The translations under genes and the position numbers were made by a program. The notes below the pieces were generated by a model that had not been told where the DNA came from, searched no databases, and saw nothing but the letters and a program-made list of their open reading frames with translations. Source: Stellaceae bacterium (GTDB taxonomy: Bacteria > Pseudomonadota > Alphaproteobacteria > ATCC43930 > CGMCC-115725). From it: a DNA stretch of 64,000 nt. Positions 3,952-44,373 of this stretch are shown here, piece by piece (position 1 is the stretch's first letter; each line of letters starts with the position of its first letter). The stretch lies in NCBI GenBank assembly GCA_035945115.1, contig DASZAN010000123.1, positions 28,073-92,072 on the forward strand, in the 5' to 3' direction.

Positions 3952-5048
3952 ATGAGCTCACGCGTCTGTTGGCGCGCCGCATCCGCGCGACGGGGCCGTT
4001 GAGCATCGCCGAGTACATGACGGAGGCCCTCCACCATCCGACGCTCGGCTACTACGCCCGGCGGGATCCGATCGGCCGCGCCGGCGACTTCATCACCGCG
4101 CCCGAGGTGAGCCAGATCTTCGGTGAGCTCTTGGGGCTCTGGTGCGCCGACGTCTGGGAGCGGATGGGCCGCCCCGATCCGGTCATCCTCGCCGAACTCG
4201 GCCCCGGACACGGCAGCTTGATGGCGGACGCGCTCCGCGCGCTCCGCGTGGCGCCGCACTTCCGCCGGGCGCTGCGGCTTCACCTCGTCGAGGCGAGCGC
4301 GATGTTGCGCCGCCGGCAGGCGGAAAAGCTCGGTGGCGCCGAGCCCGTCTGGCATGACGATCTTACGCGCCTTCCCGACGGACCGCTCATCTTGATCGCG
4401 AACGAGTTCCTCGACGCGCTGCCGATCCGGCAATTCGTGCGCGGCGCATCGGGTTGGCACGAGCGGCGCGTGGTGCTCGCCGAGGACGGCGAGCGCCTGG
4501 CCTTCGCGGTCGATAGCGCGCCGAGCCTCGCGCCGGCGCTCGCCCCGCCGGCCCTGCAATCGGCCCCGCCCGGCAGCATCTGGGAGATATGCCCGGCGGC
4601 GACGACGATGGGCGCCACCCCCGGCGCACGATTGAAGGGGCAAGGCGGAGTCGCGCTCTTCATCGATTACGGCTATGTCGCGAACGCCGGCGGCGACACG
4701 CTACAAGCGCTGAAGCAGCATCGACGCCACGACGTGCTCGCGGATCCCGGCGACGCCGATCTCACCGCCCATGTCGACTTCGCCGCCGTCGCCGCCGCCG
4801 CGGTCCAAGCCGGCGCGCGCGCCTTCGGCCCCGTGAGCCAAGCCGCATTTTTGAGGGCGCTCGGGGCGAAGGAACGCGCGGCGCAATTGCGTAAGCAGGC
4901 AACGCCGGCTCAAGCGGCGGCGATCGAGAGCGGGTGTCGTCGCTTGTTAGACGAGAACGAGATGGGCACGCTCTTCAAGGCCCTCGCCATCGTCGATCCC
5001 AAGCTCGGCGTACCCGCGGGCTTCACGGAGGAAAGACCGCCGTGCTGA
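3948..5048 (+). CDS. class I SAM-dependent methyltransferase, MidA/NDUFAF7 family (DUF185)
   Basis: LGYYARRDPIGRAGDFITAPEVSQIFGELLGLW is the characteristic MidA N-terminus. The gene overlaps the lgt stop. Confidence 0.75.
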   Translation: MNELTRLLARRIRATGPLSIAEYMTEALHHPTLGYYARRDPIGRAGDFITAPEVSQIFGELLGLWCADVWERMGRPDPVILAELGPGHGSLMADALRALRVAPHFRRALRLHLVEASAMLRRRQAEKLGGAEPVWHDDLTRLPDGPLILIANEFLDALPIRQFVRGASGWHERRVVLAEDGERLAFAVDSAPSLAPALAPPALQSAPPGSIWEICPAATTMGATPGARLKGQGGVALFIDYGYVANAGGDTLQALKQHRRHDVLADPGDADLTAHVDFAAVAAAAVQAGARAFGPVSQAAFLRALGAKERAAQLRKQATPAQAAAIESGCRRLLDENEMGTLFKALAIVDPKLGVPAGFTEERPPC

Positions 5049-36084: not shown

Positions 36085-37236
36085 TCACGCCGGCTCGGAT
36101 GCCTTGAGGCGTATGAGCTTGCTCAGGAGGGCGTCGAAGCCCTGACCCTCGCCGGCGTGGAGGTCGATCCGACCCACCTTCTCGACCAGCCGCTCGAGGC
36201 TCTCGAGCTCCTTGAGCCTGAGGAGAAGCGGGTTCTCCTCCATGAGCTTGGCGGTGTTGAGGAGCGAGCGCGTCGCCGCGGTCTCTTCCTGTCGGCGGAT
36301 CAAGTTGGCCTTGGCCATCCGCTCCGCCTCCACCACCTTGTTCACGAGCTCGCGGATCTCGCCGGGAAGGATCACATCCTTCACGCCGAGCTCAGTCACC
36401 TCGATGCCGGTCTCGACCAGACGCTCGCGCACATAGGCGCGCAGCTCCGCATCGAGCACGCTCTTGGCCGACAGCACCTCGTCGAGCGTGCGCGCCGCAA
36501 CTGCCTCGCGGATCGCGAACTGCACGAGCCGGTAGAGCCAGCCATCGACGTCGACGACCGCGCTCACCGCGCGCTCGGGATCGACGATCCGGCGAAGCGC
36601 CGTCAAGGTCACGCGCAGTGCGATGCGATCCTTGGTGAGCATCTCCTGCGCCGTGATCTCGACCGCCTGTGGCCGGAGATCGAGACGCTTCACCTCGACC
36701 TTGCGGTTGACCGACCAGTAGGCGTGCCGGCCAGGCGCGAGCCGCTCCACGAGCCGGCCCTCGACGTAGAGGAGGCCCGCCTCGTGGTTCTCGACCACCG
36801 TCTCGGCGAGATAGGGGTTACGCGCCCGCTCGACCAGCGCCAGATGCTGCGGTGCTACCTTCGGATCGCGTGCGACGTCGATGCGCTCGACCTCGACCGT
36901 GGTCGCGACCTTCCAGTAGGCGCGGAGCTGCCACGGGCCAATGAGCTGCGCTGGCCGACCGTCGAGGCTGATGATTGCGACCTCGTCGGCACGCGTCTCG
37001 ACCGCCGTGAAGAGCTCGAGCGCGATGTCCGGCCGCTCGGCCTTGATCACGGCGTAGCGCTCTGGCGGGAACTCGGTGCGCACGACCGGGAAGGTCTCGA
37101 CCTTGAGCTCGCCAAGCGGATCAAAGACGCGGTGACGGCCCGGCGGCAGCACGCGCTCGAGCCGACCGTTGCGCAGCAGAAACGCGCGCTCGCCGTCCTT
37201 AACGATCACCTGCAACACGACAAGGTACCTGGTCAT
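36085..37236 (-). CDS. SPFH/band-7 domain protein
   Basis: Start at MTRYLVVLQVIVKDGERAFLLRNG, then the SPFH core and a long coiled-coil tail. Confidence 0.7.
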   Translation of the reverse strand: MTRYLVVLQVIVKDGERAFLLRNGRLERVLPPGRHRVFDPLGELKVETFPVVRTEFPPERYAVIKAERPDIALELFTAVETRADEVAIISLDGRPAQLIGPWQLRAYWKVATTVEVERIDVARDPKVAPQHLALVERARNPYLAETVVENHEAGLLYVEGRLVERLAPGRHAYWSVNRKVEVKRLDLRPQAVEITAQEMLTKDRIALRVTLTALRRIVDPERAVSAVVDVDGWLYRLVQFAIREAVAARTLDEVLSAKSVLDAELRAYVRERLVETGIEVTELGVKDVILPGEIRELVNKVVEAERMAKANLIRRQEETAATRSLLNTAKLMEENPLLLRLKELESLERLVEKVGRIDLHAGEGQGFDALLSKLIRLKASEPA

Positions 37237-37562
37237 GACACTCTCCACACTTGGCTGCGCGACGGATTTCGCGCGGCTGGCTTCGGATCGAGGAGGGTGG
37301 GTTCCGGACGCGTCTTCCCGCGGGAGGCGGCGGGCCGGGGCTTGAGCCGCACGGGCGGCGGGCACACGTCCCCGCCGTCAGCTCAAGGCATGACGAGCGA
37401 AAGCGCTACCCGACGCCCGCGCGGGCGATATCCACCCCGGCGCAGGGCCGTTCCAACGGTGTCTGGTACGGGCAAGAGGCCTTTCGGCCAAACGACCGGA
37501 CCGCGACTGAAGCGCGCGTCCGGTCCCCCTCAGAGGTGTTCAGTTTTCCAGGCTGAACCGGC

Positions 37563-37636
37563 GCGTAGGAGCGGGAGTCGAACCCGCGACCCGATGCTTA
37601 AAGGGCATCTGCTCTAACCACCTGAGCTATCCTCGT
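37563..37636 (-). pseudogene. tRNA-Lys(UUU)-like gene with a 1-nt defect in the 5' acceptor strand
   Basis: The reverse complement folds as a tRNA (D arm gctc/gagc, anticodon loop CTTTAAG, T arm gcggg-ttcgact-cccgc). However, the 5' acceptor reads cgaggat where cgtagga is needed to pair with the 3' strand. Confidence 0.45.
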
Positions 37637-37639
37637 TTG

Positions 37640-37707
37640 TGCAACCGATCGGACTCGAACCGATGCCTCCGGGTTTCCCCGGCGCTCTTCCCTTGAGCTA
37701 CGATCGC
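37640..37707 (-). pseudogene. tRNA-like gene (Phe-GAA-like) with a truncated anticodon arm
   Basis: Good acceptor (gcgatcg/cggttgc with GU pairs), D arm and T arm are present. The anticodon region is only ccggg-gaaa-cccgg, 3 nt short. Confidence 0.4.
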
Positions 37708-38399: not shown

Positions 38400-38470
38400 G
38401 GGCCGAGCGCTGGGCGCGGCTGATCCTTGCAAGATCGGAGCGCTGAGTTCGATTCTCAGTCGGTCCACCA
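38400..38470 (+). tRNA. tRNA-Ala(UGC)
   Basis: Acceptor gggccga/tcggtcc, anticodon stem-loop tgatc-CTTGCAA-gatcg, T arm ctgag-ttcgatt-ctcag, CCA encoded. The D arm is short. Confidence 0.6.
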
Positions 38471-38545: not shown

Positions 38546-38607
38546 CGCCGTAGCCCAAAGGGCGGAGGCGGGCTGCTGCCGTGAGCTACCAGAGCAACGA
38601 CATTGGC

Positions 38608-38847
38608 ATGACCTACGTCTATATTCTCCAAAGCATGCAACGGCTCGAGCGGTTTTACGTCGGGGTGACAGCCGACTTTAGATCTCGTCTTCGGAGGCAC
38701 AACGCGGGTGAAGTGTCGCATACGTCGAAATATACGCCTTGGGCGGTGAAGACCTATATCGCGTTTTCGGATGAGACGCAGGCCTATGCGTTCGAGAAAT
38801 ATCTCAAATCGCCGTCCGGAAGGGCCTTTGCGAAGAAGCGTCTTTGA
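38608..38847 (+). CDS. GIY-YIG nuclease family protein (YhbQ/Slx1-like, about 79 aa)
   Basis: MTYVYILQS...RFYVGVTADFRSRLRRHNAGEVSHTSKYTPWAV...FSDETQAYAFEKYLK is a textbook GIY-YIG core. Confidence 0.75.
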   Translation: MTYVYILQSMQRLERFYVGVTADFRSRLRRHNAGEVSHTSKYTPWAVKTYIAFSDETQAYAFEKYLKSPSGRAFAKKRL

Positions 38848-38890: not shown

Positions 38891-39352
38891 CTACTGCCAC
38901 GTTCGTATCTCGTGCAGCCGCGGATCACCCATGTAGATCGCGTCAATGAGCGCGAACACTTGCGGTGCAAGCGGTGTTCCGATGATCTCCGACCGCTTGA
39001 GCGCCGAGTCTGCGAGGTCGCCGTCAGAGGTCAGACGACCTTGAGCGTCAACAACCATGAACTGAGGCGATCCCTCGACAATTCTGTAGTCGAGCGCGAC
39101 GGCATAACGGTCCTGCTTTGTCGCGGAAGCTCCCCACTTTCCAAGTATCAAATCGAAACTTGCGCCGTGATCGGGACGTTGCTCCGCCCAGCCGACGAAG
39201 TACGCGGCCACTGCCGCGCCGCCCCTGTGGATGAGACCCCAGACGCGTTTGGTAGTCGAGCCGCAACAATCACAATGTCCATCGCTCGTGCCACTTTGCT
39301 CGACCTCGAAAGATCGCCAATCGACCGGCCCGTCATTTGGAAGCTCAGACAC
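38891..39352 (-). CDS. hypothetical protein (contains an HCDCCG Cys-rich motif)
   Basis: A 153-aa ORF in a lower-GC segment between the GIY-YIG gene and the tRNA array. No family recognised. Confidence 0.45.
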   Translation of the reverse strand: MSELPNDGPVDWRSFEVEQSGTSDGHCDCCGSTTKRVWGLIHRGGAAVAAYFVGWAEQRPDHGASFDLILGKWGASATKQDRYAVALDYRIVEGSPQFMVVDAQGRLTSDGDLADSALKRSEIIGTPLAPQVFALIDAIYMGDPRLHEIRTWQ

Positions 39353-39494: not shown

Positions 39495-39568
39495 GCGGGC
39501 ATAGCTCAACGGCAGAGCATTGCGTTGCCAACGCAAAGACGAGGGTTCGAGTCCCCCTGTCCGCTCCA
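39495..39568 (+). tRNA. tRNA-Gly(GCC)
   Basis: gcgggca...TTGCCAA...ggttcgagtcc...tgtccgc-t-CCA. Confidence 0.8.
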
Positions 39569-39572
39569 TTTC

Positions 39573-39667
39573 GGTTGTCGGCTCTGGTGAGCGGGTGCGC
39601 CTTATAAGCGCGCGAGAGCGGCTGGACGAGCTGCGACGGGTTGGTTCGATCCCAACGACAACCACCA
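39573..39667 (+). tRNA. type-II (long variable arm) tRNA, anticodon uncertain; loop CTTATAA would give UAU
   Basis: 95 nt. Acceptor ggttgtc/gacaacc, T arm gttgg-ttcgatc-ccaac, CCA. The anticodon stem tgcgc/gcgcg has the loop cttataa. Confidence 0.5.
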
Positions 39668-39671
39668 TTGC

Positions 39672-39743
39672 TGCGGGGTGGCACGGTGCCCGCGTCGGCT
39701 CATAACCGGCGTCGCGTCCGTTCGACTCGGACCTCCGCAACCA
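39672..39743 (+). tRNA. tRNA-Met/Ile2 (CAU) with a reduced D arm
   Basis: Only 72 nt including CCA. Anticodon stem-loop gtcgg-CTCATAA-ccggc and T arm gtccg-ttcgact-cggac. Confidence 0.6.
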
Positions 39744-39746
39744 CTT

Positions 39747-39819
39747 GCCTTTCTGGTGTAGATGGTCTGCACGCCTGTCTGAAGAACAGGAGGTCTCTGA
39801 TCGTTACAGAGGGAAGGCG
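39747..39819 (+). tRNA. tRNA-Phe(GAA)-like with a non-canonical T loop (ATCGTTA) and no CCA
   Basis: Acceptor gcctttc/ggaaggc, anticodon stem-loop cctgt-CTGAAGA-acagg. Confidence 0.45.
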
Positions 39820-39821
39820 CC

Positions 39822-39897
39822 GCGGCGCTTGTAGTTTGGTGACTGCCTTAGCCTTCCAAGCTAATGAGGGCGGGTTCGATTCCCCCGCGCCGCTCCA
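39822..39897 (+). tRNA. tRNA-Gly(UCC)
   Basis: Acceptor gcggcgc/gcgccgc, anticodon stem-loop ttagc-CTTCCAA-gctaa, CCA. Confidence 0.75.
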
Positions 39898-39904
39898 GTT
39901 TCAT

Positions 39905-39981
39905 TCCCAGCGGTCCCCATTGGCAGGGGAACGAGACTGTTAATCTCGTCGCTCCAGGTTCGAATCCTGGGCTGGGAGCCA
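39905..39981 (+). tRNA. tRNA-Asn(GUU)
   Basis: Acceptor tcccagc/gctggga, anticodon stem-loop cgaga-CTGTTAA-tctcg, T arm ccagg-ttcgaat-cctgg, CCA. Confidence 0.8.
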
Positions 39982-40056
39982 TTTAAGCCCGAGCTGAAGC
40001 CAGCCGCCCGGTCTCCAAAACCGCGGCGCGTGGGAGCGTTACCTACCGGGCGTGCC
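39982..40056 (+). other. degenerate tRNA-sized spacer (possible Trp-CCA-like anticodon hairpin cggt-CTCCAAA-accg)
   Basis: 75 nt between two tRNAs. No canonical T loop or acceptor pairing could be found. Confidence 0.2.
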
Positions 40057-40132
40057 AGTGCCGTGGCGGAGTGGTCATCGCCGGGGTCTGCAAAACCTCT
40101 CTATCTGGGTTCGATTCCCAGCGGCACTTCCA
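40057..40132 (+). tRNA. tRNA-Cys(GCA)
   Basis: Acceptor agtgccg/cggcact, anticodon stem-loop ggggt-CTGCAAA-acctc, T arm ctggg-ttcgatt-cccag, CCA. The first nucleotide overlaps the previous spacer's terminal A. Confidence 0.65.
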
Positions 40133-40133
40133 T

Positions 40134-40209
40134 GGTGGTCGTGGACCTCTGGCGAAGTCGGCGCGTCGTGACCGCGCTCAGGCGAGTTCGATTCTCGTCG
40201 GCCACCCCA
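40134..40209 (+). tRNA. tRNA-His(GUG) with an encoded G-1
   Basis: G-1 plus gtggtcg pairs with cggccac-C73. Anticodon stem-loop gcgcg-TCGTGAC-cgcgc; CCA. Confidence 0.75.
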
Positions 40210-40284
40210 GCCCGCATAGCACAGCAGCAGTGCAGCCGCCTTGTAAGCGGAAGGCCGTGGGTGCAAATCCTACTGCGGGCACCA
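40210..40284 (+). tRNA. tRNA-Tyr(GUA) with a SHORT variable arm (type I), T loop TGCAAAT
   Basis: Acceptor gcccgca/tgcgggc-A73, D arm gcac/gtgc, anticodon loop CTTGTAA, 75 nt. Confidence 0.55.
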
Positions 40285-40291
40285 GATTGAT

Positions 40292-40368
40292 GGCGGATTA
40301 CGGCGTGGTCGCCGCGGCCGGCTCTGACCCGGCTTGATTAGAGAGTTCGATTCTCTCGTCCGCTGCCA
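40292..40368 (+). tRNA. tRNA-Gln(CUG)
   Basis: Acceptor ggcggat/gtccgct (two GU pairs), anticodon stem-loop gccgg-CTCTGAC-ccggc, T arm gagag-ttcgatt-ctctc, CCA. Confidence 0.7.
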
Positions 40369-40370
40369 TG

Positions 40371-40442
40371 ACGCGGGGCCTCTAGCGAGGGCGCCGGCCT
40401 TTGAAGCCGGCCAGATCGGTGCGATCCCGGTACCCGCTGCCA
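40371..40442 (+). tRNA. tRNA-Gln(UUG)-like, with poorly paired acceptor and T loop TGCGATC
   Basis: Anticodon stem-loop ccggc-CTTTGAA-gccgg is perfect and CCA is present. The acceptor pairing could not be satisfied. Confidence 0.45.
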
Positions 40443-40447
40443 ATCAT

Positions 40448-40523
40448 GTCCCATTCGGCTACTGGCTAGGCCGCCACCCTCTCAAGGTGGAAAAGGCGGG
40501 ATCGAAACCCCCATGGGACACCA
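40448..40523 (+). tRNA. tRNA-Glu(CUC)
   Basis: Acceptor gtcccat/atgggac, anticodon stem-loop ccacc-CTCTCAA-ggtgg, CCA. Confidence 0.75.
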
Positions 40524-40527
40524 ATTC

Positions 40528-40604
40528 GCGCGCGTATCCCAACAGGCAGAGGAACAACGTTGAGAGCGTTGACAGTGCGCGTTCGAATCGCGCCGCGCGC
40601 ACCA
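40528..40604 (+). tRNA. tRNA-Leu(GAG) with a short (5-nt) variable arm
   Basis: Acceptor gcgcgcg/cgcgcgc-A73, anticodon stem-loop caacg-TTGAGAG-cgttg, T arm gcgcg-ttcgaat-cgcgc, 77 nt including CCA. Confidence 0.55.
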
Positions 40605-40606
40605 GA

Positions 40607-40684
40607 GGGCCGGTAGACCAATCGGTAGGAGTCATCGCGCTTAGAACGCGAGCAGTGTGGGTTCGAATCCCTCCCGGCCTACCA
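40607..40684 (+). tRNA. tRNA-Leu(UAG) with a short variable arm
   Basis: Acceptor gggccgg/ccggcct-A73, anticodon stem-loop tcgcg-CTTAGAA-cgcga, CCA. Confidence 0.55.
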
Positions 40685-40690
40685 TTTTAC

Positions 40691-40779
40691 GGAAGGTGCC
40701 GCTGAAAGGCCGGCAACTGGTCTTGAAAACCAGGGTAGCGTGATGAGCGCTAAGGGTTCGATTCCTTCACCTTCCGCCA
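40691..40779 (+). tRNA. tRNA-Ser(UGA), type II
   Basis: Acceptor ggaaggt/accttcc-G73, anticodon stem-loop ctggt-CTTGAAA-accag, a long variable arm, CCA. Confidence 0.8.
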
Positions 40780-40782
40780 TTT

Positions 40783-40870
40783 GGAGAGTCAATCGGCGAG
40801 GTCGCCGAGCGCGCCTGCTAAGCGCGGCGCCGTTCGCGTGGCCGGTGAGTTTCGATTACTCGGCTCTCCG
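40783..40870 (+). tRNA. tRNA-Ser(GCU), type II, no encoded CCA
   Basis: Acceptor ggagagt/gctctcc-G73, anticodon stem-loop cgcgc-CTGCTAA-gcgcg. Confidence 0.75.
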
Positions 40871-40872
40871 CC

Positions 40873-40946
40873 GCTCGTGTAGCTCAATGGCAGAGCAGCG
40901 CATTGGTATCGCGCCGATTGCGGTTCGATCCCGCACATGAGCTCCA
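40873..40946 (+). tRNA. tRNA-Thr(GGU)
   Basis: Acceptor gctcgtg/catgagc, D arm gctc-aatggca-gagc, anticodon loop TTGGTAT, T arm tgcgg-ttcgatc-ccgca, CCA. Confidence 0.8.
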
Positions 40947-40951
40947 GTTTC

Positions 40952-41044
40952 GGGAGACGCCAATAAGGTCGGGCTGGTGCCGACGCCGCGCTGTAAACGC
41001 GGTCCCGCACGGGCAAGAGGTTCGATTCCGTCCGTCTCCCACCA
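40952..41044 (+). tRNA. tRNA-Tyr(GUA), type II (canonical bacterial form)
   Basis: Acceptor gggagac/gtctccc-A73, anticodon stem-loop ccgcg-CTGTAAA-cgcgg, variable stem cccg/cggg, CCA. Confidence 0.65.
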
Positions 41045-41045
41045 T

Positions 41046-41118
41046 GGGCCTCTCGTCCAATGCAGGACACGCGCCTGATTAGCGTGGAATCGCAGTGCAA
41101 ATCTGCGGGGGCCTACCA
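41046..41118 (+). tRNA. tRNA-Ile(GAU), T loop TGCAAAT
   Basis: Acceptor gggcctc/ggggcct, D arm gtcc/ggac, anticodon loop CTGATTA, T arm cgcag-tgcaaat-ctgcg, CCA. Confidence 0.75.
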
Positions 41119-41124
41119 ATTCCG

Positions 41125-41199
41125 GGGTCGCTAACTCAACGGCAGAGTACCCGCCTCTTAAGCGGTGAGATCATGGTTCGAATCCATGGCGGCCCACCA
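41125..41199 (+). tRNA. tRNA-Lys(CUU)
   Basis: Acceptor gggtcgc/gcggccc, D arm actc/gagt, anticodon loop CTCTTAA, T arm catgg-ttcgaat-ccatg, CCA. Confidence 0.75.
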
Positions 41200-41251
41200 T
41201 TGCGCCGAGAGGCGCGGCATCGGCACAGGTCCGCGAGCAGCCGATGCACCC

Positions 41252-41326
41252 GCACTGTGAGCCATGTGGCCGAGGCGCTGCCCAGTCACGGCAGATAGAC
41301 GGGTTCGATCCCCGTACAGTGCGCCA
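41252..41326 (+). tRNA. tRNA-Asp(GUC) (anticodon loop CAGTCAC, A at position 33)
   Basis: Acceptor gcactgt/acagtgc-G73, anticodon stem ctgcc/ggcag, T arm acggg-ttcgatc-cccgt, CCA. Preceded by a 52-nt spacer containing two hairpins. Confidence 0.7.
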
Positions 41327-41333
41327 GTTTCGG

Positions 41334-41408
41334 CGGAGTGTAAGTCAGCAGCAGACGGCTTGCTTTGGAAGCAAGCAGACGGGGGTGCAAGTCCCTCCAC
41401 TCCGACCA
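41334..41408 (+). tRNA. tRNA-Pro(UGG), T loop TGCAAGT
   Basis: Acceptor cggagtg/cactccg, anticodon stem-loop cttgc-TTTGGAA-gcaag, CCA. Confidence 0.75.
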
Positions 41409-41411
41409 TTT

Positions 41412-41483
41412 GCCCTCGCCGCTGAGACGGAAGCGGGTTTCCTAAACCTGCGCAGCGCGGTTTGATTCCGCGCGGGGGCGCCA
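41412..41483 (+). tRNA. tRNA-Arg(CCU)
   Basis: Acceptor gccctcg/cgggggc, anticodon stem-loop cgggt-TTCCTAA-acctg, T arm cgcgg-tttgatt-ccgcg, CCA. Confidence 0.6.
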
Positions 41484-41484
41484 T

Positions 41485-41559
41485 GGGCGCTTAGTAGAGT
41501 GGTCATAACGGCTGGCCTACACCCAGCAGACGGTGGTTCGATTCCATCAGCGCCTACCA
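41485..41559 (+). tRNA. tRNA-Val(UAC) (anticodon loop CCTACAC)
   Basis: Acceptor gggcgct/agcgcct-A73, anticodon stem gctgg/ccagc, T arm ggtgg-ttcgatt-ccatc, CCA. Confidence 0.65.
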
Positions 41560-41562
41560 TTT

Positions 41563-41639
41563 TGCAGCGTTACGCTTCCGGTGAGGCGCCCCGCCTTTCA
41601 AGCGGGAGAGGCTCGGTTCGACTCCGGCACGCTGCACCA
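41563..41639 (+). tRNA. tRNA-Glu(UUC)
   Basis: Acceptor gcagcgt/acgctgc, anticodon stem-loop cccgc-CTTTCAA-gcggg, CCA. Confidence 0.75.
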
Positions 41640-41646
41640 ATTTCCT

Positions 41647-41718
41647 GGCCCACCCGCTGAGACGGACGCGGCGCTTCGAACGCCGCAATGCGGAGTTTGA
41701 TTCTCCGGTGGGCCCCCA
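41647..41718 (+). tRNA. tRNA-Arg(UCG)
   Basis: Acceptor ggcccac/gtgggcc, anticodon stem-loop cggcg-CTTCGAA-cgccg, T arm cggag-tttgatt-ctccg, CCA. Confidence 0.7.
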
Positions 41719-41719
41719 T

Positions 41720-41794
41720 GCGCACGCAGCTCGATGGACGAGCGCCGCTCTGCGAAGGCGGAGGCTGAAGGTTCGATTCCTTTCGTGCGCGCCA
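41720..41794 (+). tRNA. tRNA-Arg(GCG) (unusual anticodon; bacteria normally use ACG)
   Basis: Acceptor gcgcacg/cgtgcgc, D arm gctc-gatggac-gagc, anticodon stem-loop ccgct-CTGCGAA-ggcgg, CCA. Confidence 0.65.
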
Positions 41795-41799
41795 ATTCT

Positions 41800-41871
41800 G
41801 GTCACGTCCCGATGGATCGGGCATCCGCCTTCTAAGCGGGTTGAATGCGGGTTCGAATCCTGCCGTGACCG
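41800..41871 (+). tRNA. tRNA-Arg(UCU), no encoded CCA
   Basis: Acceptor ggtcacg/cgtgacc-G73, anticodon stem-loop tccgc-CTTCTAA-gcggg, T arm gcggg-ttcgaat-cctgc. Confidence 0.7.
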
Positions 41872-41873
41872 CC

Positions 41874-41951
41874 GCGCGACTAGCCCAATTGGCAGAGGCG
41901 GCTCGCTCAAAACGAGCAACGGTCTCGGTTCGAGTCCGAGGTCGCGCACCA
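41874..41951 (+). tRNA. tRNA-Leu(CAA) with a short variable arm
   Basis: Acceptor gcgcgac/gtcgcgc-A73, anticodon stem-loop gctcg-CTCAAAA-cgagc, T arm ctcgg-ttcgagt-ccgag, CCA. Confidence 0.6.
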
Positions 41952-41955
41952 CTGC

Positions 41956-42029
41956 GGGCGTATAGCTGGAAGGACAAGCTGCCGCCTTTTAAGCGGTTGA
42001 TGAGAGTTCGATTCTCTCTGCGCCCACCA
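41956..42029 (+). tRNA. tRNA-Lys(UUU)
   Basis: Acceptor gggcgta/tgcgccc-A73, anticodon stem-loop gccgc-CTTTTAA-gcggt, T arm gagag-ttcgatt-ctctc, CCA. Confidence 0.75.
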
Positions 42030-42034
42030 TTGCC

Positions 42035-42105
42035 GCTCCGGTCGTTCAACAGTAGGATGGCGCCCTCGTAGAGCGCAGATTTCGGTGCAACTCCGAACTG
42101 GAGCT
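42035..42105 (+). tRNA. tRNA-Thr(CGU), T loop TGCAACT, no CCA
   Basis: Acceptor gctccgg/ctggagc, anticodon stem-loop gcgcc-CTCGTAG-agcgc, T arm ttcgg-tgcaact-ccgaa. The last gene of the array. Confidence 0.55.
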
Positions 42106-42110
42106 CTTTC

Positions 42111-43733
42111 TCACGAGTTCCCCAGCACCGTCTCCGCGGCGACATAGCCCCAGGTCATGCACGGGCCGAGCGTCGTTCCGGCGCCGATGGCGCGGGTGCC
42201 GATCGGGTTCGCCATGGCGTTGCCGGCGGCGAGCAAGCCGGGAATGACGGTGTGGTCTTGGCGCAGCGCCTGCGCTCTGTTATTGGTGCGGACGCCGCCC
42301 TTGGTGCCGACGGTCATGAGATCGATGGCCATCGCGTAGAAGGGCGGCTGCTCGATCTTGCCGAGTGCTACGCCCGTCCGGCCCAGCTTGTAGTGCTCCC
42401 ACACGCTTTCGCCACGGTGAAAATCCTCGTCACGGCCCATCTCGCAGAAGCGGTTGAAGCGCTCGACCGTTGCTTTGAGGGTCGCCGCGGGAATGCCGAT
42501 GCGCCCGGCAATTTCCTCTAGGCTCGTTCCCTTGATGACCCAGCCCTTCTCATGCGACGCATACCAGCGGAAGGCCGCGCCGTGCCGCAGGTAGCGGCTG
42601 TCGGCGATGACATAGGCCGGCACATGCAGCAGCTCGCCCGAACTCGGATCGCGCCGGTCGAGCGCCTCGCCCAGATTGTAGGAGAGTTCGCTCACGAAGC
42701 GTCGGCCGTGGCGATCGACCAGGATCGCATGCGGCGCGGCTTGGAAGGTGGCGGGGATGCCGGAAGGCTGGCCTTCATAAGTGACCGGCAGCAGCGGGTA
42801 GATATTGGCTTGATCCATACGGTCGAGCCGCGCACCCGCGGCTTCGGCCATGCGCTGGCCATCGCCCTCGTTGCTGCGCGGACTGCCGATCCGCTGGAAG
42901 CGTCCGCCGAAATGACGCTCGACGAGCGCGGTATTCCACTCGAATCCGCCGGTGGCGAGAAGGACGCCGCGCCGTGCCCGGATCGTCACGGGTTTCCCGT
43001 CGCTGAGCCCCGTCACGCCGACGACGCCACCCGTGCGATCATCGAGCATGAGGCTTTGGGCGCGCGTCGCCAGCAGCAAGCGGCAGGATCGGTCGAGACA
43101 CGCCTTCAAGAGCCCGGCGACGAGCGCGTTTCCTTGGCCGATGCTATCGGTGATCCGCCGCCGCAAGAGAGCCGGAAGGAGTCGGAAGCCGGTTCGCACG
43201 GGGTGGTGATAGGGATCGAGCGCGAGCACCTCTTGATAGGTGAAGATGTGCGGCAGCGTCGACCGCCGGATCCTTTGCGCGTAAGGCCCCAAGATTTTGC
43301 GGCTAAGGAGACGAGGCGAGACCATGCGGCCCACCTTCTTGCCGCCGGCATACTCGGCCATTGGGTCGGGCTCGTTCGTCAAGGCGAAGCGAAGCGGCGT
43401 GTTCTGCTCGACGAACTCGAGCATGATGGGCGCGGTCGCGGCAAAGCGCCGCCAGAGCAAATCCTCGCTGTTGTGCCAACCCGGCGGCGCGGTGGCGCGC
43501 AGGTATTGCAGCGCCTCGTCCGGGCTGTCGCTCAAGCCCGCGGCACGGGCGTGGTGGTTCGCCGGGATCCAGATGCCACCGCCCGACATCGCGCTCGCGC
43601 CGCCGGCAAGCGCCGCTTTTTCGAGGATGGTGACACTGAGGCCGCCGGACGAGGCCCTGAGCGCCGCCGTGAGCCCGGCGCAACCCGAGCCGATCACGAG
43701 AAAATCGGTCTCGATTCGGTTGGGATCGCTCAT
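42111..43733 (-). CDS. FAD-binding dehydrogenase (fumarate reductase/succinate dehydrogenase flavoprotein-like, KstD-like)
   Basis: Start at MSDPNRIETDFLVIGSGCAGLTAAL (GxGxxG). A C-terminal FAD_binding_2 capping motif is present. Confidence 0.75.
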   Translation of the reverse strand: MSDPNRIETDFLVIGSGCAGLTAALRASSGGLSVTILEKAALAGGASAMSGGGIWIPANHHARAAGLSDSPDEALQYLRATAPPGWHNSEDLLWRRFAATAPIMLEFVEQNTPLRFALTNEPDPMAEYAGGKKVGRMVSPRLLSRKILGPYAQRIRRSTLPHIFTYQEVLALDPYHHPVRTGFRLLPALLRRRITDSIGQGNALVAGLLKACLDRSCRLLLATRAQSLMLDDRTGGVVGVTGLSDGKPVTIRARRGVLLATGGFEWNTALVERHFGGRFQRIGSPRSNEGDGQRMAEAAGARLDRMDQANIYPLLPVTYEGQPSGIPATFQAAPHAILVDRHGRRFVSELSYNLGEALDRRDPSSGELLHVPAYVIADSRYLRHGAAFRWYASHEKGWVIKGTSLEEIAGRIGIPAATLKATVERFNRFCEMGRDEDFHRGESVWEHYKLGRTGVALGKIEQPPFYAMAIDLMTVGTKGGVRTNNRAQALRQDHTVIPGLLAAGNAMANPIGTRAIGAGTTLGPCMTWGYVAAETVLGNS

Positions 43734-43878
43734 CCGATCAACCCGAGGACGTTGCGTCGCGCGTAGAGCCGGTCCCCATACTCCCGGAGATCGGCTGAGA
43801 GACGCAAGCCATCGCTTGCCGTTACTATGGCGAGGCCACGACCTCTGTCGCCGTTTCACCTCGCTCGACCATGGGGAG

Positions 43879-44373
43879 ATGGACATGCCCTCGACAACGC
43901 GGCGCGATCGCAGCGCGCTTGAAGCTTCCCTTTCCGCCGGCACGGTCGTCGTCGCCTCCACCGGCGTTGGCAAGTTCCAGCAACTCATGTTGGACGGACG
44001 CCACGCGCTCCATGGCGATGAGCCGCGCTCGGCCGGCGGCGATGATACCGGGCCAGGTCCCTACGAGCTGCTGCTGATGGCGCTCGGCAGCTGTACGTCG
44101 ATGACGGTCCATCTCTATGCCGCGCGCAAGAAATGGCCGGTGGAGCAGGTCGTCGTCCGGCTTCGCCAGGAACGCGTTCATGCGCGGGACTGCGCTGATT
44201 GCGAGCAGCCGGGCGCGATGGTCCATCGCATCGAGAAGACGATCGAGCTCGTCGGCGCGCTCGACGAGGCGCAACGACAGCGCTTGCTCGAGATTGCCGA
44301 CCATTGTCCGGTTCACCGCACCTTGACAGCCAAGATCGAAATCGCGAGCGCCCTCGCCCCCACCGGCGACTGA
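43879..44373 (+). CDS. OsmC/Ohr family peroxiredoxin-like protein
   Basis: PYELLLMALGSCTSMTV ... ADHCPVHRTL gives the paired Cys motifs of the OsmC family. Confidence 0.75.
   Translation: MDMPSTTRRDRSALEASLSAGTVVVASTGVGKFQQLMLDGRHALHGDEPRSAGGDDTGPGPYELLLMALGSCTSMTVHLYAARKKWPVEQVVVRLRQERVHARDCADCEQPGAMVHRIEKTIELVGALDEAQRQRLLEIADHCPVHRTLTAKIEIASALAPTGD

Follow-up and report, generated by a model that had tools for sequence, protein, structure and literature searches.

In the canonical tRNA elbow, G18 lies between residues 57 and 58 and is bonded to pseudouridine 55. In the yeast suppressor SUP4oc the G18–U55 pair tolerates no single substitution (PMC4117946), and a paired change is therefore expected wherever function is kept. 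Two natural tRNAs depart from this arrangement. The Staphylococcus NP1–NP3 tRNA-Gly, bacterial tRNAs barred from translation, lack U55 and have lost both G18 and G19 (to UU or CU), a loss that no partner compensates; they belong to a single isotype, serve a dedicated cell-wall function, and have weak EF-Tu determinants (PMC13443448, PMC4574755). The tRNA-Pyl of Desulfitobacterium hafniense is a functional tRNA with G55 and no T54–pseudouridine 55–C56; its position 56 is A, its D loop has 5 bases and lacks G18–G19, its anticodon stem has 6 bp, just one base separates the acceptor stem from the D stem, and its core is compact and non-canonical (PMC1851642). Generic T loops read UGNRA in 88.7% of cases and UGNAA in ~80%, and the base intercalating into them is almost exclusively adenosine; the FMN and cobalamin riboswitch modules prefer UGHAA, with an adenosine expected between positions 4 and 5 (bioRxiv 10.1101/2022.12.26.521914).

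The long tRNA gene array (L-array) of Anabaena PCC 7120 consists of dozens of tRNA genes in one orientation, set a few bases apart; it is non-periodic, covers nearly all isotypes, includes some degenerate members, and adjoins an HNH nuclease gene (PMC8421152, PMC4758250). Adjoining homing endonuclease genes are on record for L-arrays, and 23 of the 26 tRNAs of the Anabaena trn operon are charged in vivo, with all those tested found on polysomes, at the level of the operon and with Glu-CUC not singled out (PMC8421152). We found no description of an A18/G55 elbow in the literature, and no mention of a T-loop/D-loop variant in that on Anabaena-type arrays (PMC8421152, PMC4758250).

The window contains an L-array

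The window, the whole 64,000-nucleotide stretch analyzed here, belongs to a chromosomal alphaproteobacterial contig (probably Stellaceae) and contains the following features.

38400–38470, + strand: tRNA-Ala(UGC) (ARAGORN), outside the array and co-oriented with it; isotype absent from the array
38581–38847, + strand: 88-aa GIY-YIG nuclease-domain protein (PF01541, E = 7.9e-14), upstream of the array and co-oriented
39495–42106, + strand: L-array (ARAGORN, Infernal, unit-by-unit cloverleaf parse)
42111–43988, − strand: convergent oxidoreductase gene ORF, its stop codon 5 bases past the end of tRNA-Thr(CGU)

The array comprises ~33 tRNA or tRNA-like units in head-to-tail order, with CCA encoded in nearly all of them, and covers all 20 amino acids together with the Ala-UGC gene at 38400. 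It is identified as an L-array, of the mobile, phage-like kind, by 25 ARAGORN genes within 2.6 kb on one strand, the upstream GIY-YIG gene, and the ordinary chromosomal flanks seen in the ORFs scanned on either side; it was probably acquired horizontally. A consensus scan gave no excess of promoter-like or terminator-like signals. The array resembles that of Anabaena in its many co-oriented genes, short spacers, lack of periodicity, near-complete isotype coverage, degenerate members, and adjoining nuclease gene (GIY-YIG in place of HNH), whereas sequence relationship is limited to single tRNAs and gene order differs. Closest matches of the individual tRNAs come from phage tRNA clusters (large IMG/VR phages; T5-like, Bastille-like, and others), and phage contigs also share an A18/G55 elbow in many isotypes, U37 in Ile-GAU, C33 in Val-UAC, and AUCGUUA T loops. 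Unlike in those clusters, the ORFs scanned beside the array yielded no gene for phage structure or replication, and the cultured phages inspected (Bacillus phage P59, a Proteus phage, Streptomyces phage BRock, and Vibrio phage JSF10) have U55 throughout.

The cloverleaf parse reproduced several oddities listed in the original prediction, namely A33 in Asp (CAGUCAC), C33 in His (UCGUGAC) and Val (CCUACAC), the AUCGUUA T loop in Phe, and an Arg-GCG anticodon; the reduced D arm reported for the CAU tRNA is visible in the ARAGORN drawing.

Four array genes carry G55

The original prediction also described five array tRNAs with T54–G55–C56. Four of these are solid genes.

40210–40284, + strand: tRNA-Thr(UGU), swapped elbow; RF00005 61.2 bits (match 40210–40281); CCA encoded; D loop AGCAGCA at 40223–40229 (A18 = 40226, G19 = 40227); T loop UGCAAAU at 40262–40268 (G55 = 40263)
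41046–41118, + strand: tRNA-Ile(GAU), G55; RF00005 41.8 bits (match 41046–41115); CCA encoded; D loop AAUGCA at 41059–41064; anticodon loop CUGAUUA (U37 = 41080); T loop UGCAAAU at 41096–41102 (G55 = 41097)
41334–41408, + strand: tRNA-Pro(UGG), swapped elbow; RF00005 54.5 bits (match 41334–41405); CCA encoded; D loop AGCAGCA at 41347–41353 (A18 = 41350, G19 = 41351); T loop UGCAAGU at 41386–41392 (G55 = 41387)
42035–42106, + strand: tRNA-Thr(CGU), swapped elbow; RF00005 39.1 bits (match 42035–42105); no encoded CCA; D loop AACAGUA at 42048–42054 (A18 = 42051, G19 = 42052); C31–A39 mismatch; T loop UGCAACU at 42086–42092 (G55 = 42087); abuts the convergent gene

Refolding against RF00005 aligns all four T loops as U54–G55–C56, and ARAGORN and an independent cloverleaf parse place them in the identical register, on 5-bp T stems closed by G53–C61. 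Alternative T-stem registers offer no UUC in any of the four, and the G55 reading stands; the sole UUC among them lies within the 5′ strand of the Thr-CGU T stem. The gene at 40210, first taken for a Tyr tRNA, has the anticodon loop CUUGUAA and is Thr-UGU.

The partner of the G55 change, a G-to-A change at position 18, had been overlooked. A18–G19 replaces G18–G19 in three of the four genes, and the D-loop GG present in every cleanly parsed U55 tRNA of the window occurs in none of them, while G19–C56, U54–A58, and G53–C61 are all retained. The exception, Ile-GAU, is without the A18 found in its phage homologues (D loop AAYAGCA) and has apparently lost it; phage Ile-GAU genes, its nearest relatives, likewise have both U37 and G55.

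The fifth member of the predicted set is a sub-threshold, tRNA-like remnant with the same loop, and a sixth unit also has G at position 55.

40373–40442, + strand: degenerate Gln(UUG)-like unit; 20.9 bits (threshold 29), uncalled by ARAGORN; acceptor stem of 5 bp, reduced D arm; T loop UGCGAUC at 40420–40426 (G55 = 40421); CCA encoded
39985–40056, + strand: very weak second Trp(CCA)-like unit; ARAGORN at relaxed threshold only; 12.7 bits against tRNA-Sec, no RF00005 match; T loop AGCGUUA (A54, G55, U58)

Two Arg-like units elsewhere in the array have reduced D arms.

Positions 18 and 55 change together

The survey covered 844 distinct tRNAs, drawn from the window and from ~150 loci retrieved from phages, genomes, and metagenomes; each had to score at least 20 in our own parser, and positions 18–19 were assigned by rule. 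G55 is spread over 24 anticodon classes and 61 loci. A18–G19 accompanies it in 94 of 99 tRNAs and occurs in 2 of 677 U55 tRNAs from comparable loci, essentially all of which have GG; within the D loop, A-G takes up the offsets that canonical GG occupies. With the search-selected isotypes left out, the counts are 45/47 and 2/675 (Fisher p ~1e-66, a value that overstates the evidence, as the loci were chosen for holding one G55 tRNA rather than at random and related sequences are non-independent). A57 is likewise enriched with G55 (57/99, versus 179/677 with U55). The exceptions combine G18–G19 with G55 (loci L033 and L028) or A-G with U55 (L091, L094, and the Pro gene of Vibrio phage JSF10). 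The G55/A18 pattern is beyond chance, in agreement with the original prediction that a recurrent, non-random departure at this highly conserved tertiary contact has some constraint behind it.

Scans from either side converge on this pairing. Thr-UGU genes selected by an A18-type D arm alone turned out to have G55 T loops, and a search on the G55 T arm alone brought up 46 viral and 40 genomic loci, with A-G at 18–19 in nearly all of their D loops; scans for Pro-UGG and Ile-GAU had the same outcome. Within the G55 families of Thr-UGU (n = 42), Ile-GAU (9), and Pro-UGG (9), evolution has preserved structure: 18 of 21 stem pairs have changed on both sides, and G53–C61 is invariant.

The A18–G55 combination is found again in tRNAs of phages, of tRNA arrays, and of some archaea. 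DPANN archaeal contigs contain Thr-UGU genes with A18/G55 beside normal tRNAs and ordinary cellular genes, and the Glu-CUC gene of the Anabaena PCC 7120 trn operon has the T loop UGCAACU and an A-G D loop. Thr-UGU homologues in Bacillus phage P59, a Proteus phage, and a Pseudomonas plasmid have GG and TTC, and differ from the window gene at exactly three positions, 18 (G), 20, and 55 (U).

A probable rebuilt elbow and its alternatives

We consider it likely that the G55 genes are structurally compensated tRNAs of a mobile, phage-like L-array. A18 inserted against G55, usually with A57, would take the place of the G18–pseudouridine 55 contact, and the outer G19–C56 pair, the reverse-Hoogsteen U54–A58 pair, and G53–C61 would be kept around the swapped pair. 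U54–G55–C56–A57–A58 with an intercalating adenosine would then be the generic T-loop/receptor solution of the FMN and cobalamin riboswitches: UGCAA at loop positions 1–5 fits UGHAA, with G at position 2, and A18 would be the adenosine expected between positions 4 and 5. Because UGCAA and an inserted A match this design, the A18/G55 tRNAs are most likely compensated and normally folded, and we infer an elbow geometry as in riboswitch T loops. The window module differs from these in its setting, a tRNA elbow with the D loop as receptor, and in position 3 (C56), which keeps a Watson–Crick pair with G19. Such tRNAs can carry neither pseudouridine 55 nor Gm18.

The original prediction had proposed either descent from a common odd ancestor or a constraint other than canonical translation. 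Duplication and re-targeting of one odd tRNA, or copying of its T arm to neighbors by gene conversion, would fit a trait found in four to six members of one array, and Thr-UGU and Pro-UGG do have in common the AGCAGCA D loop and the stretch GGGUGCAA. Outside the T loop, however, the four genes share 29–48% identity (mean 40%) with each other and a mean of 42% with other members; their T stems are unlike (GUGGG, CGCAG, GGGGG, UUCGG), and their best matches are same-isotype tRNAs at other loci (68–83%), some with U55 and some with G55. Since the four are no closer to one another than to their array neighbors, a common origin from one odd tRNA of the array is unsupported, and we regard it as extremely unlikely. 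We also find it very unlikely that the elbow was lost to avoid EF-Tu and the ribosome in tRNAs acting as amino-acid donors to another pathway or as regulators. The staphylococcal NP tRNA-Gly and tRNA-Pyl are precedents for loss of the canonical elbow, and the authors of the Anabaena study left non-canonical roles of array tRNAs possible. Where the NP tRNAs lose G18 and G19 uncompensated, however, the window genes change 18 and 55 jointly and retain G19, C56, U54, A58, and G53–C61, and unlike tRNA-Pyl they are otherwise canonical. G55 is spread over 24 anticodon classes rather than confined to a single amino-acid-specific set; anticodon loops and acceptor stems in the G55 families are conserved by isotype and show compensatory changes, and the scan of flanking ORFs identified no Fem-type transferase. 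A Staphylococcus-type role is disfavored because G19–C56 is kept and the isotypes, here Thr, Ile, and Pro, are diverse. The second proposed cause finds no support either, because the A18/G55 combination, which matches the generic T-loop/receptor rule, points to an L shape kept rather than given up.

Decay in a silent, supernumerary array, with the G55 genes as pseudogenes gathering hits at conserved positions, is improbable. It draws on the degenerate units at 40373 and 39985 and the two Arg-like ones, on the poor transcription of L-arrays under standard conditions and the 3 pseudogenes among 26 Anabaena genes, and on the absence of a promoter-like or terminator-like signal from our consensus scan. 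The missing A18 of Ile-GAU and the missing CCA and stem mismatch of Thr-CGU point the same way and, with the gene abutting Thr-CGU and the sub-threshold score of 40373, are counterpoints to compensation. Yet random decay would hardly strike 18 and 55 jointly in 94 of 99 cases and at 61 loci while sparing 19, 54, 56, 58, 53, and 61, and the 39–61 bits of the four genes fall inside the 36–66 of the U55 array members. The compensatory stem changes speak against the pseudogene reading as well. Selection, finally, may have favored A18/G55 in phage and array tRNAs by hiding them from a host factor that recognizes G18 or pseudouridine 55, such as a tRNA-cleaving toxin or defense nuclease directed at the T loop or elbow, or by ending dependence on TruB/TrmH. 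A Burkholderia CdiA-CT toxin reportedly cuts tRNA between T54 and pseudouridine 55, which counts for such an escape. The variant is found chiefly in phage contigs and L-arrays, several loci having 4–6 such tRNAs of differing isotype (L065, L100, L027, L094, L149, and the window), and G55 arose repeatedly inside isotype families rather than once. Other nuclease-relevant deviations abound in the same arrays (non-U33 in 62 of 831 tRNAs, U37 in Ile-GAU, recurrent C33 in Val-UAC), phage tRNAs evade tRNA-targeting defenses by anticodon-loop mutations (PMC10264068), and L-array tRNAs aid survival under translational stress (PMC8421152). Against this, no T-loop- or elbow-directed defense nuclease is encoded beside or implicated with the arrays in the data examined, the phage-tRNA studies consulted deal with anticodon arms only, an arms race is less obvious for the ordinary chromosomal DPANN genes, and neutral drift, if compensated along the way, would leave an identical sequence pattern. 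We therefore hold escape to be possible, though rather unlikely. It is compatible with structural compensation, would explain why the variant exists, and would parallel the anticodon-loop escape of phage tRNAs from anticodon nucleases.

If the elbow is rebuilt by compensation, the G55 RNAs should fold to the L shape, be processed and charged, and be used by ribosomes; the chromosomal DPANN Thr-UGU genes and the charged Anabaena array tRNAs lead us to infer that A18/G55 tRNAs are competent in translation. The swapped pair looks like a working alternative tRNA design, not damage.

G55 T loops in four array tRNAs

Four genes in the tRNA array carry U54-G55-C56 in the T loop, and all four pass the Rfam curated threshold for tRNA (RF00005, 29 bits).

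G55 genes of the array, with T loops and Infernal scores against RF00005
40210, Thr-UGU, T loop UGCAAAU, 61.2 bits
41046, Ile-GAU, T loop UGCAAAU, 41.8 bits
41334, Pro-UGG, T loop UGCAAGU, 54.5 bits
42035, Thr-CGU, T loop UGCAACU, 39.1 bits

Each folds into a cloverleaf with a 7-bp acceptor stem, 4-bp D stem, 5-bp anticodon and T stems, and 7-base anticodon and T loops, scoring 21–22 of 22 points in our own cloverleaf parse. The T stems are closed by a G53-C61 pair, and no alternative T-arm register that would give a canonical TTC/UUC loop is available in any of the four genes, either in the Infernal alignment or in our parse. The original prediction had placed G55 in five array tRNAs. Refolding on RF00005 upheld four of them, with U54-G55-C56 aligned at 39.1–61.2 bits, and the gene at 40210, then read as Tyr, is Thr-UGU. 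The fifth, unit 40373, is a decayed array member with a T loop of UGCGAUC, a reduced D arm and a sub-threshold score of 20.9 bits. Unit 39985, with the T loop AGCGUUA, is weaker still.

The D loops of the four genes read AGCAGCA in Thr-UGU and Pro-UGG, AACAGUA in Thr-CGU, and AAUGCA in Ile-GAU. Placing these loops against the model consensus, A-a-U-G-G-U-A, puts A18-G19 in the first three; in Ile-GAU, position 18 is missing or is U. The contact between G18 and pseudouridine 55, regarded as close to invariant in cytoplasmic tRNAs, is absent from all four. All array members with U55 that parsed cleanly have a GG in the D loop. The G19-C56, U54-A58 and G53-C61 pairs and A14 are present in the four genes (for Ile-GAU, G19 under a U-G reading of its 6-nt D loop) and are retained in 98 of the 99 G55 tRNAs of the wider set described below.

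Covariation of positions 18 and 55

Scanning viral contigs for Thr-UGU with the A18-type D arm fixed and the T arm free returned tRNAs with UGCGAAU. The reverse scan, with the G55 T arm fixed and the D arm free, hit 46 viral contigs of about a dozen lineages, nearly all with A-G at positions 18-19. The G55 T-arm scan of one genome per species gave 40 loci. They include many Planctomycetota arrays, the largest with 39 tRNAs in 8 kb; L065, from an uncultured proteobacterium, where six or more tRNAs have G55; the Binatia array L094, where five do; one Bulleidia genome; and four DPANN archaea. Further phage arrays and metagenome contigs came from G55 scans for Pro-UGG and Ile-GAU. The database search for G55 tRNAs, put forward earlier as a check, located them in 61 loci and 24 anticodon classes.

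Bases at positions 18-19 by base at position 55, among 844 distinct, well-parsed tRNAs
G55, all: n = 99; A-G in 94; three of the other five ambiguous between AG and GG
U55, all: n = 677; A-G in 2; GG in 652
G55, pattern-selected isotypes removed: n = 47; A-G in 45
U55, pattern-selected isotypes removed: n = 675; A-G in 2

Positions 18 and 55 covary across tRNAs, and this paired change at a tertiary contact is widespread and recurrent in tRNAs of phages and arrays and in some from archaea. The Fisher p value of the association in the filtered set (~1e-66) is overstated because relatives are not independent. Within the D loop, the A-G dinucleotide takes the offsets that GG has in canonical tRNAs, and A57 is commoner with G55 (58%) than with U55 (26%). 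Mixed 18/55 states are rare in either direction, the pattern expected of intermediates. We found no description of the A18/G55 elbow in the open-access literature, within which absence is not proof.

The Pro-UGG gene of Vibrio phage JSF10 (L168, ~2560–2638), which adjoins Asp-GUC as its counterpart in the window does, has A-G and no GG in its D loop and a canonical T loop, UUCGAGU; it may represent an A18/U55 intermediate state. C55 T loops (UCCGAxU) occur in phage and metagenome tRNAs at seven loci (L025, L034, L111, L114, L120, L134 and L147). These tRNAs depart from U55 without a change at 18, having a normal GG D loop in 10 of 10 cases. Searches from L100, L114, L121 and a common viral Thr-UGU gave no clear case of a cultured phage with G55 tRNAs, and the Streptomyces phage BRock cluster has U55 in all 19 parsed tRNAs.

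A proposed generic T-loop solution at the tRNA elbow

In canonical tRNA, G18 lies between residues 57 and 58 and is bonded to pseudouridine 55, G19 pairs with C56, and the five-base T-loop motif is closed by U54-A58 (PMC7912444). In a deep mutational scan, yeast SUP4oc tolerated no single substitution in G18-U55, G19-C56 or U54-A58 (PMC4117946). The T loops of FMN and cobalamin riboswitches follow another rule: 88.7% are UGNRA and ~80% UGNAA, with UGHAA working best, and the base inserted between T-loop positions 4 and 5 is almost always an adenosine facing the position-2 base; the same study describes tRNA, with U at position 2, as the outlier (bioRxiv 10.1101/2022.12.26.521914).

T-loop positions 1–5 of the four genes, UGCAA, obey the UGNRA rule, as does UGCGA in the degenerate unit 40373. 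Judged by sequence, the inserting position, where canonical tRNAs have G18, is taken by adenosine in 94 of 99 G55 tRNAs; among the four window genes, three have it. The elbow of these tRNAs would then have switched from the tRNA-specific to the generic T-loop solution while retaining the G19-C56 pair on its outer face. A generic T-loop/receptor arrangement explains the triple pattern of G55, A18 and frequent A57. By analogy with the riboswitch motif, we infer a geometry in which the adenosine would stack between T-loop positions 4 and 5 and bond to the G at position 2, and such an elbow is predicted to let the tRNA take its normal L shape with neither pseudouridine 55 nor Gm18.

How G55 came to recur in the array

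Descent from a common odd ancestor had been one proposed source of the recurrence across isotypes. Outside the T loop, identities among the four genes are 29–48% (mean 40%), against a mean of 42% to other array members, and these values reject a common ancestor inside the array; G55 did not spread from one gene. The best matches of each G55 gene are same-isotype tRNAs at other loci, which argues that the trait was gained several times within isotype families and was sometimes inherited from a phage-type pool. The closest relatives of the window Thr-UGU, in Bacillus phage P59, a Proteus phage and a Pseudomonas plasmid, carry GG and UUC, and the window gene differs from them exactly at positions 18 and 55, plus 20; it is 83% identical to a U55 phage gene and 83% to a G55 Bulleidia gene. 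Pro-UGG and Thr-CGU both have their nearest relatives among U55 tRNAs.

The window Ile-GAU is a member of a phage lineage in which G55 goes together with U37, at a position where t6A37 is expected. Its anticodon loop, CUGAUUA (41075–41081), also occurs at L109, L114, L118, L121, L122 and L130, and U37 is present in 7 of 9 G55 Ile-GAU genes versus none of 11 with U55. The combination sets apart a distinct lineage of phage-type Ile tRNAs. The D loop of these phage relatives reads AAYAGCA, of which the window gene no longer has the A18 base. A BLAST search of phages with the Ile gene by itself produced no match.

The array and its surroundings

Features of the array region
36085–37365, SPFH protein, ordinary chromosomal flank
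37567–37633, minus strand, tRNA truncated in the acceptor stem (model positions 4–67; Infernal), adjoining the next unit
37639–37707, minus strand, tRNA-shaped gene, 54.3 bits (ARAGORN and Infernal)
38400, tRNA-Ala (ARAGORN), outside the array
38581–38847, plus strand, GIY-YIG domain protein, 88 aa (PF01541, E = 8e-14; weak T5orf172 match), upstream of the array
38891–39352, minus strand, 153-aa protein without a Pfam domain
39495–42106, plus strand, tRNA array (L-array), 25 ARAGORN genes and ~33 units in 2,612 bases
42111–43988, FAD-dependent oxidoreductase, ordinary chromosomal flank

Units of a tRNA array are defined as at least 20 co-oriented tRNA genes at two or more per kb (Tran et al. 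2016, PMC4758250). The long ones, termed L-arrays, are considered to spread by horizontal transfer and often have a homing-endonuclease gene as a neighbor (PMC4758250; PMC8421152). The window array is an L-array by the features that define the class. Its 25 ARAGORN genes are co-oriented and dense, and further tRNA-like units, from Infernal and our own cloverleaf parse, fill most of the ARAGORN gaps. Among the ~33 units, spacers measure 0–10 bases, and nearly all units encode CCA. The array covers 19 amino acids, with Ala supplied by the gene at 38400, and is non-periodic, with no repeated gene order in the unit list. The adjacent gene of homing-endonuclease type is the GIY-YIG gene just upstream, paralleling those found beside other L-arrays (PMC8421152). 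Within the 64 kb of genome covered, phage-like tRNA relatives, the GIY-YIG neighbor and a slightly lower G+C are consistent with a set that may be supernumerary to the housekeeping tRNAs and acquired from elsewhere; a horizontal origin is likely. Further upstream are ordinary chromosomal genes, a GntR regulator and an ABC permease.

The opposite-strand gene at 37639–37707 has its anticodon loop swapped for a GAAA tetraloop (CCGGG-GAAA-CCCGG); together with the truncated unit at 37567–37633 it could be an integration-site remnant, or a tRNA-like RNA without a decoding role. Over 120 homologues of the 153-aa protein occur in metagenomes from soil and freshwater. A protein of a Stellaceae MAG matches part of it at 99% identity, which makes an alphaproteobacterium the probable host. 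We rejected its gene as a handle for related arrays: tRNAs adjoined it in none of five fetched contexts, which were varied and chromosomal, and it therefore has no relation to the array. Plasmids and phages searched by BLAST with the whole array gave single-tRNA matches and no related array, and tRNA-pattern scans of genomes and metagenomes, including a broader Pro-UGG scan, revealed no close relative; the latter did return other G55 arrays, such as L150. The exact D arm of the window Thr-UGU had no metagenome match, and a promoter/terminator consensus scan of the array stayed at shuffle level and was uninformative.

Other departures from the tRNA consensus were read correctly in the original prediction, our own parse confirming A33 in Asp (41252), C33 in His (40135) and Val-UAC (41485), AUCGUUA in Phe, and Arg-GCG. 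Non-U33 tRNAs or Val-UAC with C33 also occur at L058, L070, L094, L100, L122 and L134. The T loop of Phe-GAA (39747–39821), AUCGUUA, has A54 and U58, the reverse of U54-A58, and recurs in phage tRNA arrays L109, L112, L114, L132 and L134. A combined form, AGCGUUA (A54, G55, U58), is found in a His tRNA of L109, a Thr-GGU tRNA of L121 and the weak window unit 39985. The A54/U58 loop looks like a second covarying T-loop variant. A reduced D arm (CCGCUGAGACGGA) and the T loop UUUGAUU, in which U56 replaces C56, are common to two Arg-like units (41409–41484 and 41647–41714, anticodons CCU and UCG); neither unit has an ARAGORN call or an Infernal match at E < 1. The tRNA with anticodon UAU at 39573–39667 is 95 nt long with a long variable arm (type II shape), and a 101-nt counterpart lies in the L065 array (4429–4529).

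G55 tRNAs as probable working tRNAs

A function other than canonical translation had also been suggested for these genes. Known Staphylococcus non-proteinogenic tRNA-Gly species lack U55, have lost G18 and G19 together, belong to one isotype and serve a dedicated role. The four genes, in contrast, keep G19 and C56, substitute A18 and represent Thr, Ile, Pro and Thr rather than Gly only; they show neither the joint loss of G18, G19 and U55 nor the restriction to one amino acid, and the wider set spans 24 anticodon classes. A reading of them as odd, perhaps non-translational tRNAs is very unlikely. tRNA-Pyl shares G55 with the window genes but has A56 and a compact, non-canonical core.

Compensatory changes were counted within the G55 families of Thr-UGU (n = 42), Ile-GAU (n = 9) and Pro-UGG (n = 9). 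Both sides have changed in 18 of 21 stem pairs, and G53-C61 is invariant; the percentage paired is uninformative because the sets were filtered for good pairing, and it is the abundance of double changes that is informative. Four DPANN loci from Woesearchaeota/Nanoarchaeia MAGs (L060, L069, L084 and L086) each hold a single chromosomal Thr-UGU with A18-G19 and G55, and these genes differ among themselves by compensatory acceptor-stem changes. The other tRNAs in the fetched stretches of L069 and L084 are canonical, and the one DPANN context examined (L069) contains ordinary cellular genes.

The trn operon of Anabaena PCC 7120 is the best-studied L-array (PMC8421152). On the delta plasmid of Nostoc sp. 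PCC 7120 (L170), its Glu-CUC (2416–2493) has the T loop UGCAACU and an A-G D loop (AAAUAAGAUAA), and its Ile-GAU (4592–4662) has the T loop GGCAGUA and the D loop AAAAGUG, without GG. Upon induction, 23 of the 26 operon tRNAs, perhaps including Glu-CUC, were detected and charged in vivo; all those tested were found on polysomes, and the operonic Ile-GAU was charged and had aberrant gel mobility (PMC8421152). The Anabaena array tRNAs and the DPANN Thr-UGU genes lend indirect support, by analogy, to the idea that the four window genes may be matured, aminoacylated and used by the ribosome.

Possible reasons for the variant

The A18/G55 pair may be a compensated and nearly neutral path, one that mobile, supernumerary sets of tRNAs tolerate more often. 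Selection for the variant, as an escape from attack directed at the elbow or T loop or as independence from TruB and TrmH, seems unlikely, though several observations from sequence would favor it. Conserved sites show an unusual number of other departures in these arrays: 62 of 831 array and phage tRNAs have a base other than U at position 33, Val-UAC with C33 (CCUACAC) occurs at seven unrelated loci, and swapped A54-U58 T loops such as AUCGUUA are found in several phage arrays. Phage tRNAs are also known to escape anticodon nucleases by loop changes (PMC10264068).

A broader version, which we consider more doubtful still, would treat the A18-G55 elbow, along with the variants that the same arrays have at other sites (non-U33, U37 and A54-U58), as a counter-defense adaptation of the mobile tRNA sets of phages and L-arrays. 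The tRNAs would have been rebuilt at each conserved site recognized by host or competitor tRNases and modification-dependent sensors, and the holder of the array, cell or phage, would keep translating while standard tRNAs are cut. If the variant is a nuclease escape, it would point to an unknown tRNA-directed defense or toxin; if the counter-defense reading is true, the altered elbow would be the sign of a kind of tRNA attack, directed at the T loop or elbow, that is new to description.

As a natural paired alternative, the A18/G55 elbow occurs in ~100 distinct tRNAs that belong to 24 anticodon classes and come from bacteria, phages and archaea. It would be a clear case of two positions covarying at a tertiary contact and would tie the tRNA elbow to the rules that T loops and their receptors follow in general. 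It would also serve as a sequence marker of phage-type or array-type tRNAs, which gene finders score lower, and offer a new orthogonal scaffold for engineered tRNAs. For the biology of tRNA itself, it would define a class that has to work with neither pseudouridine 55 nor Gm18, a point of relevance to what TruB and TrmH do.
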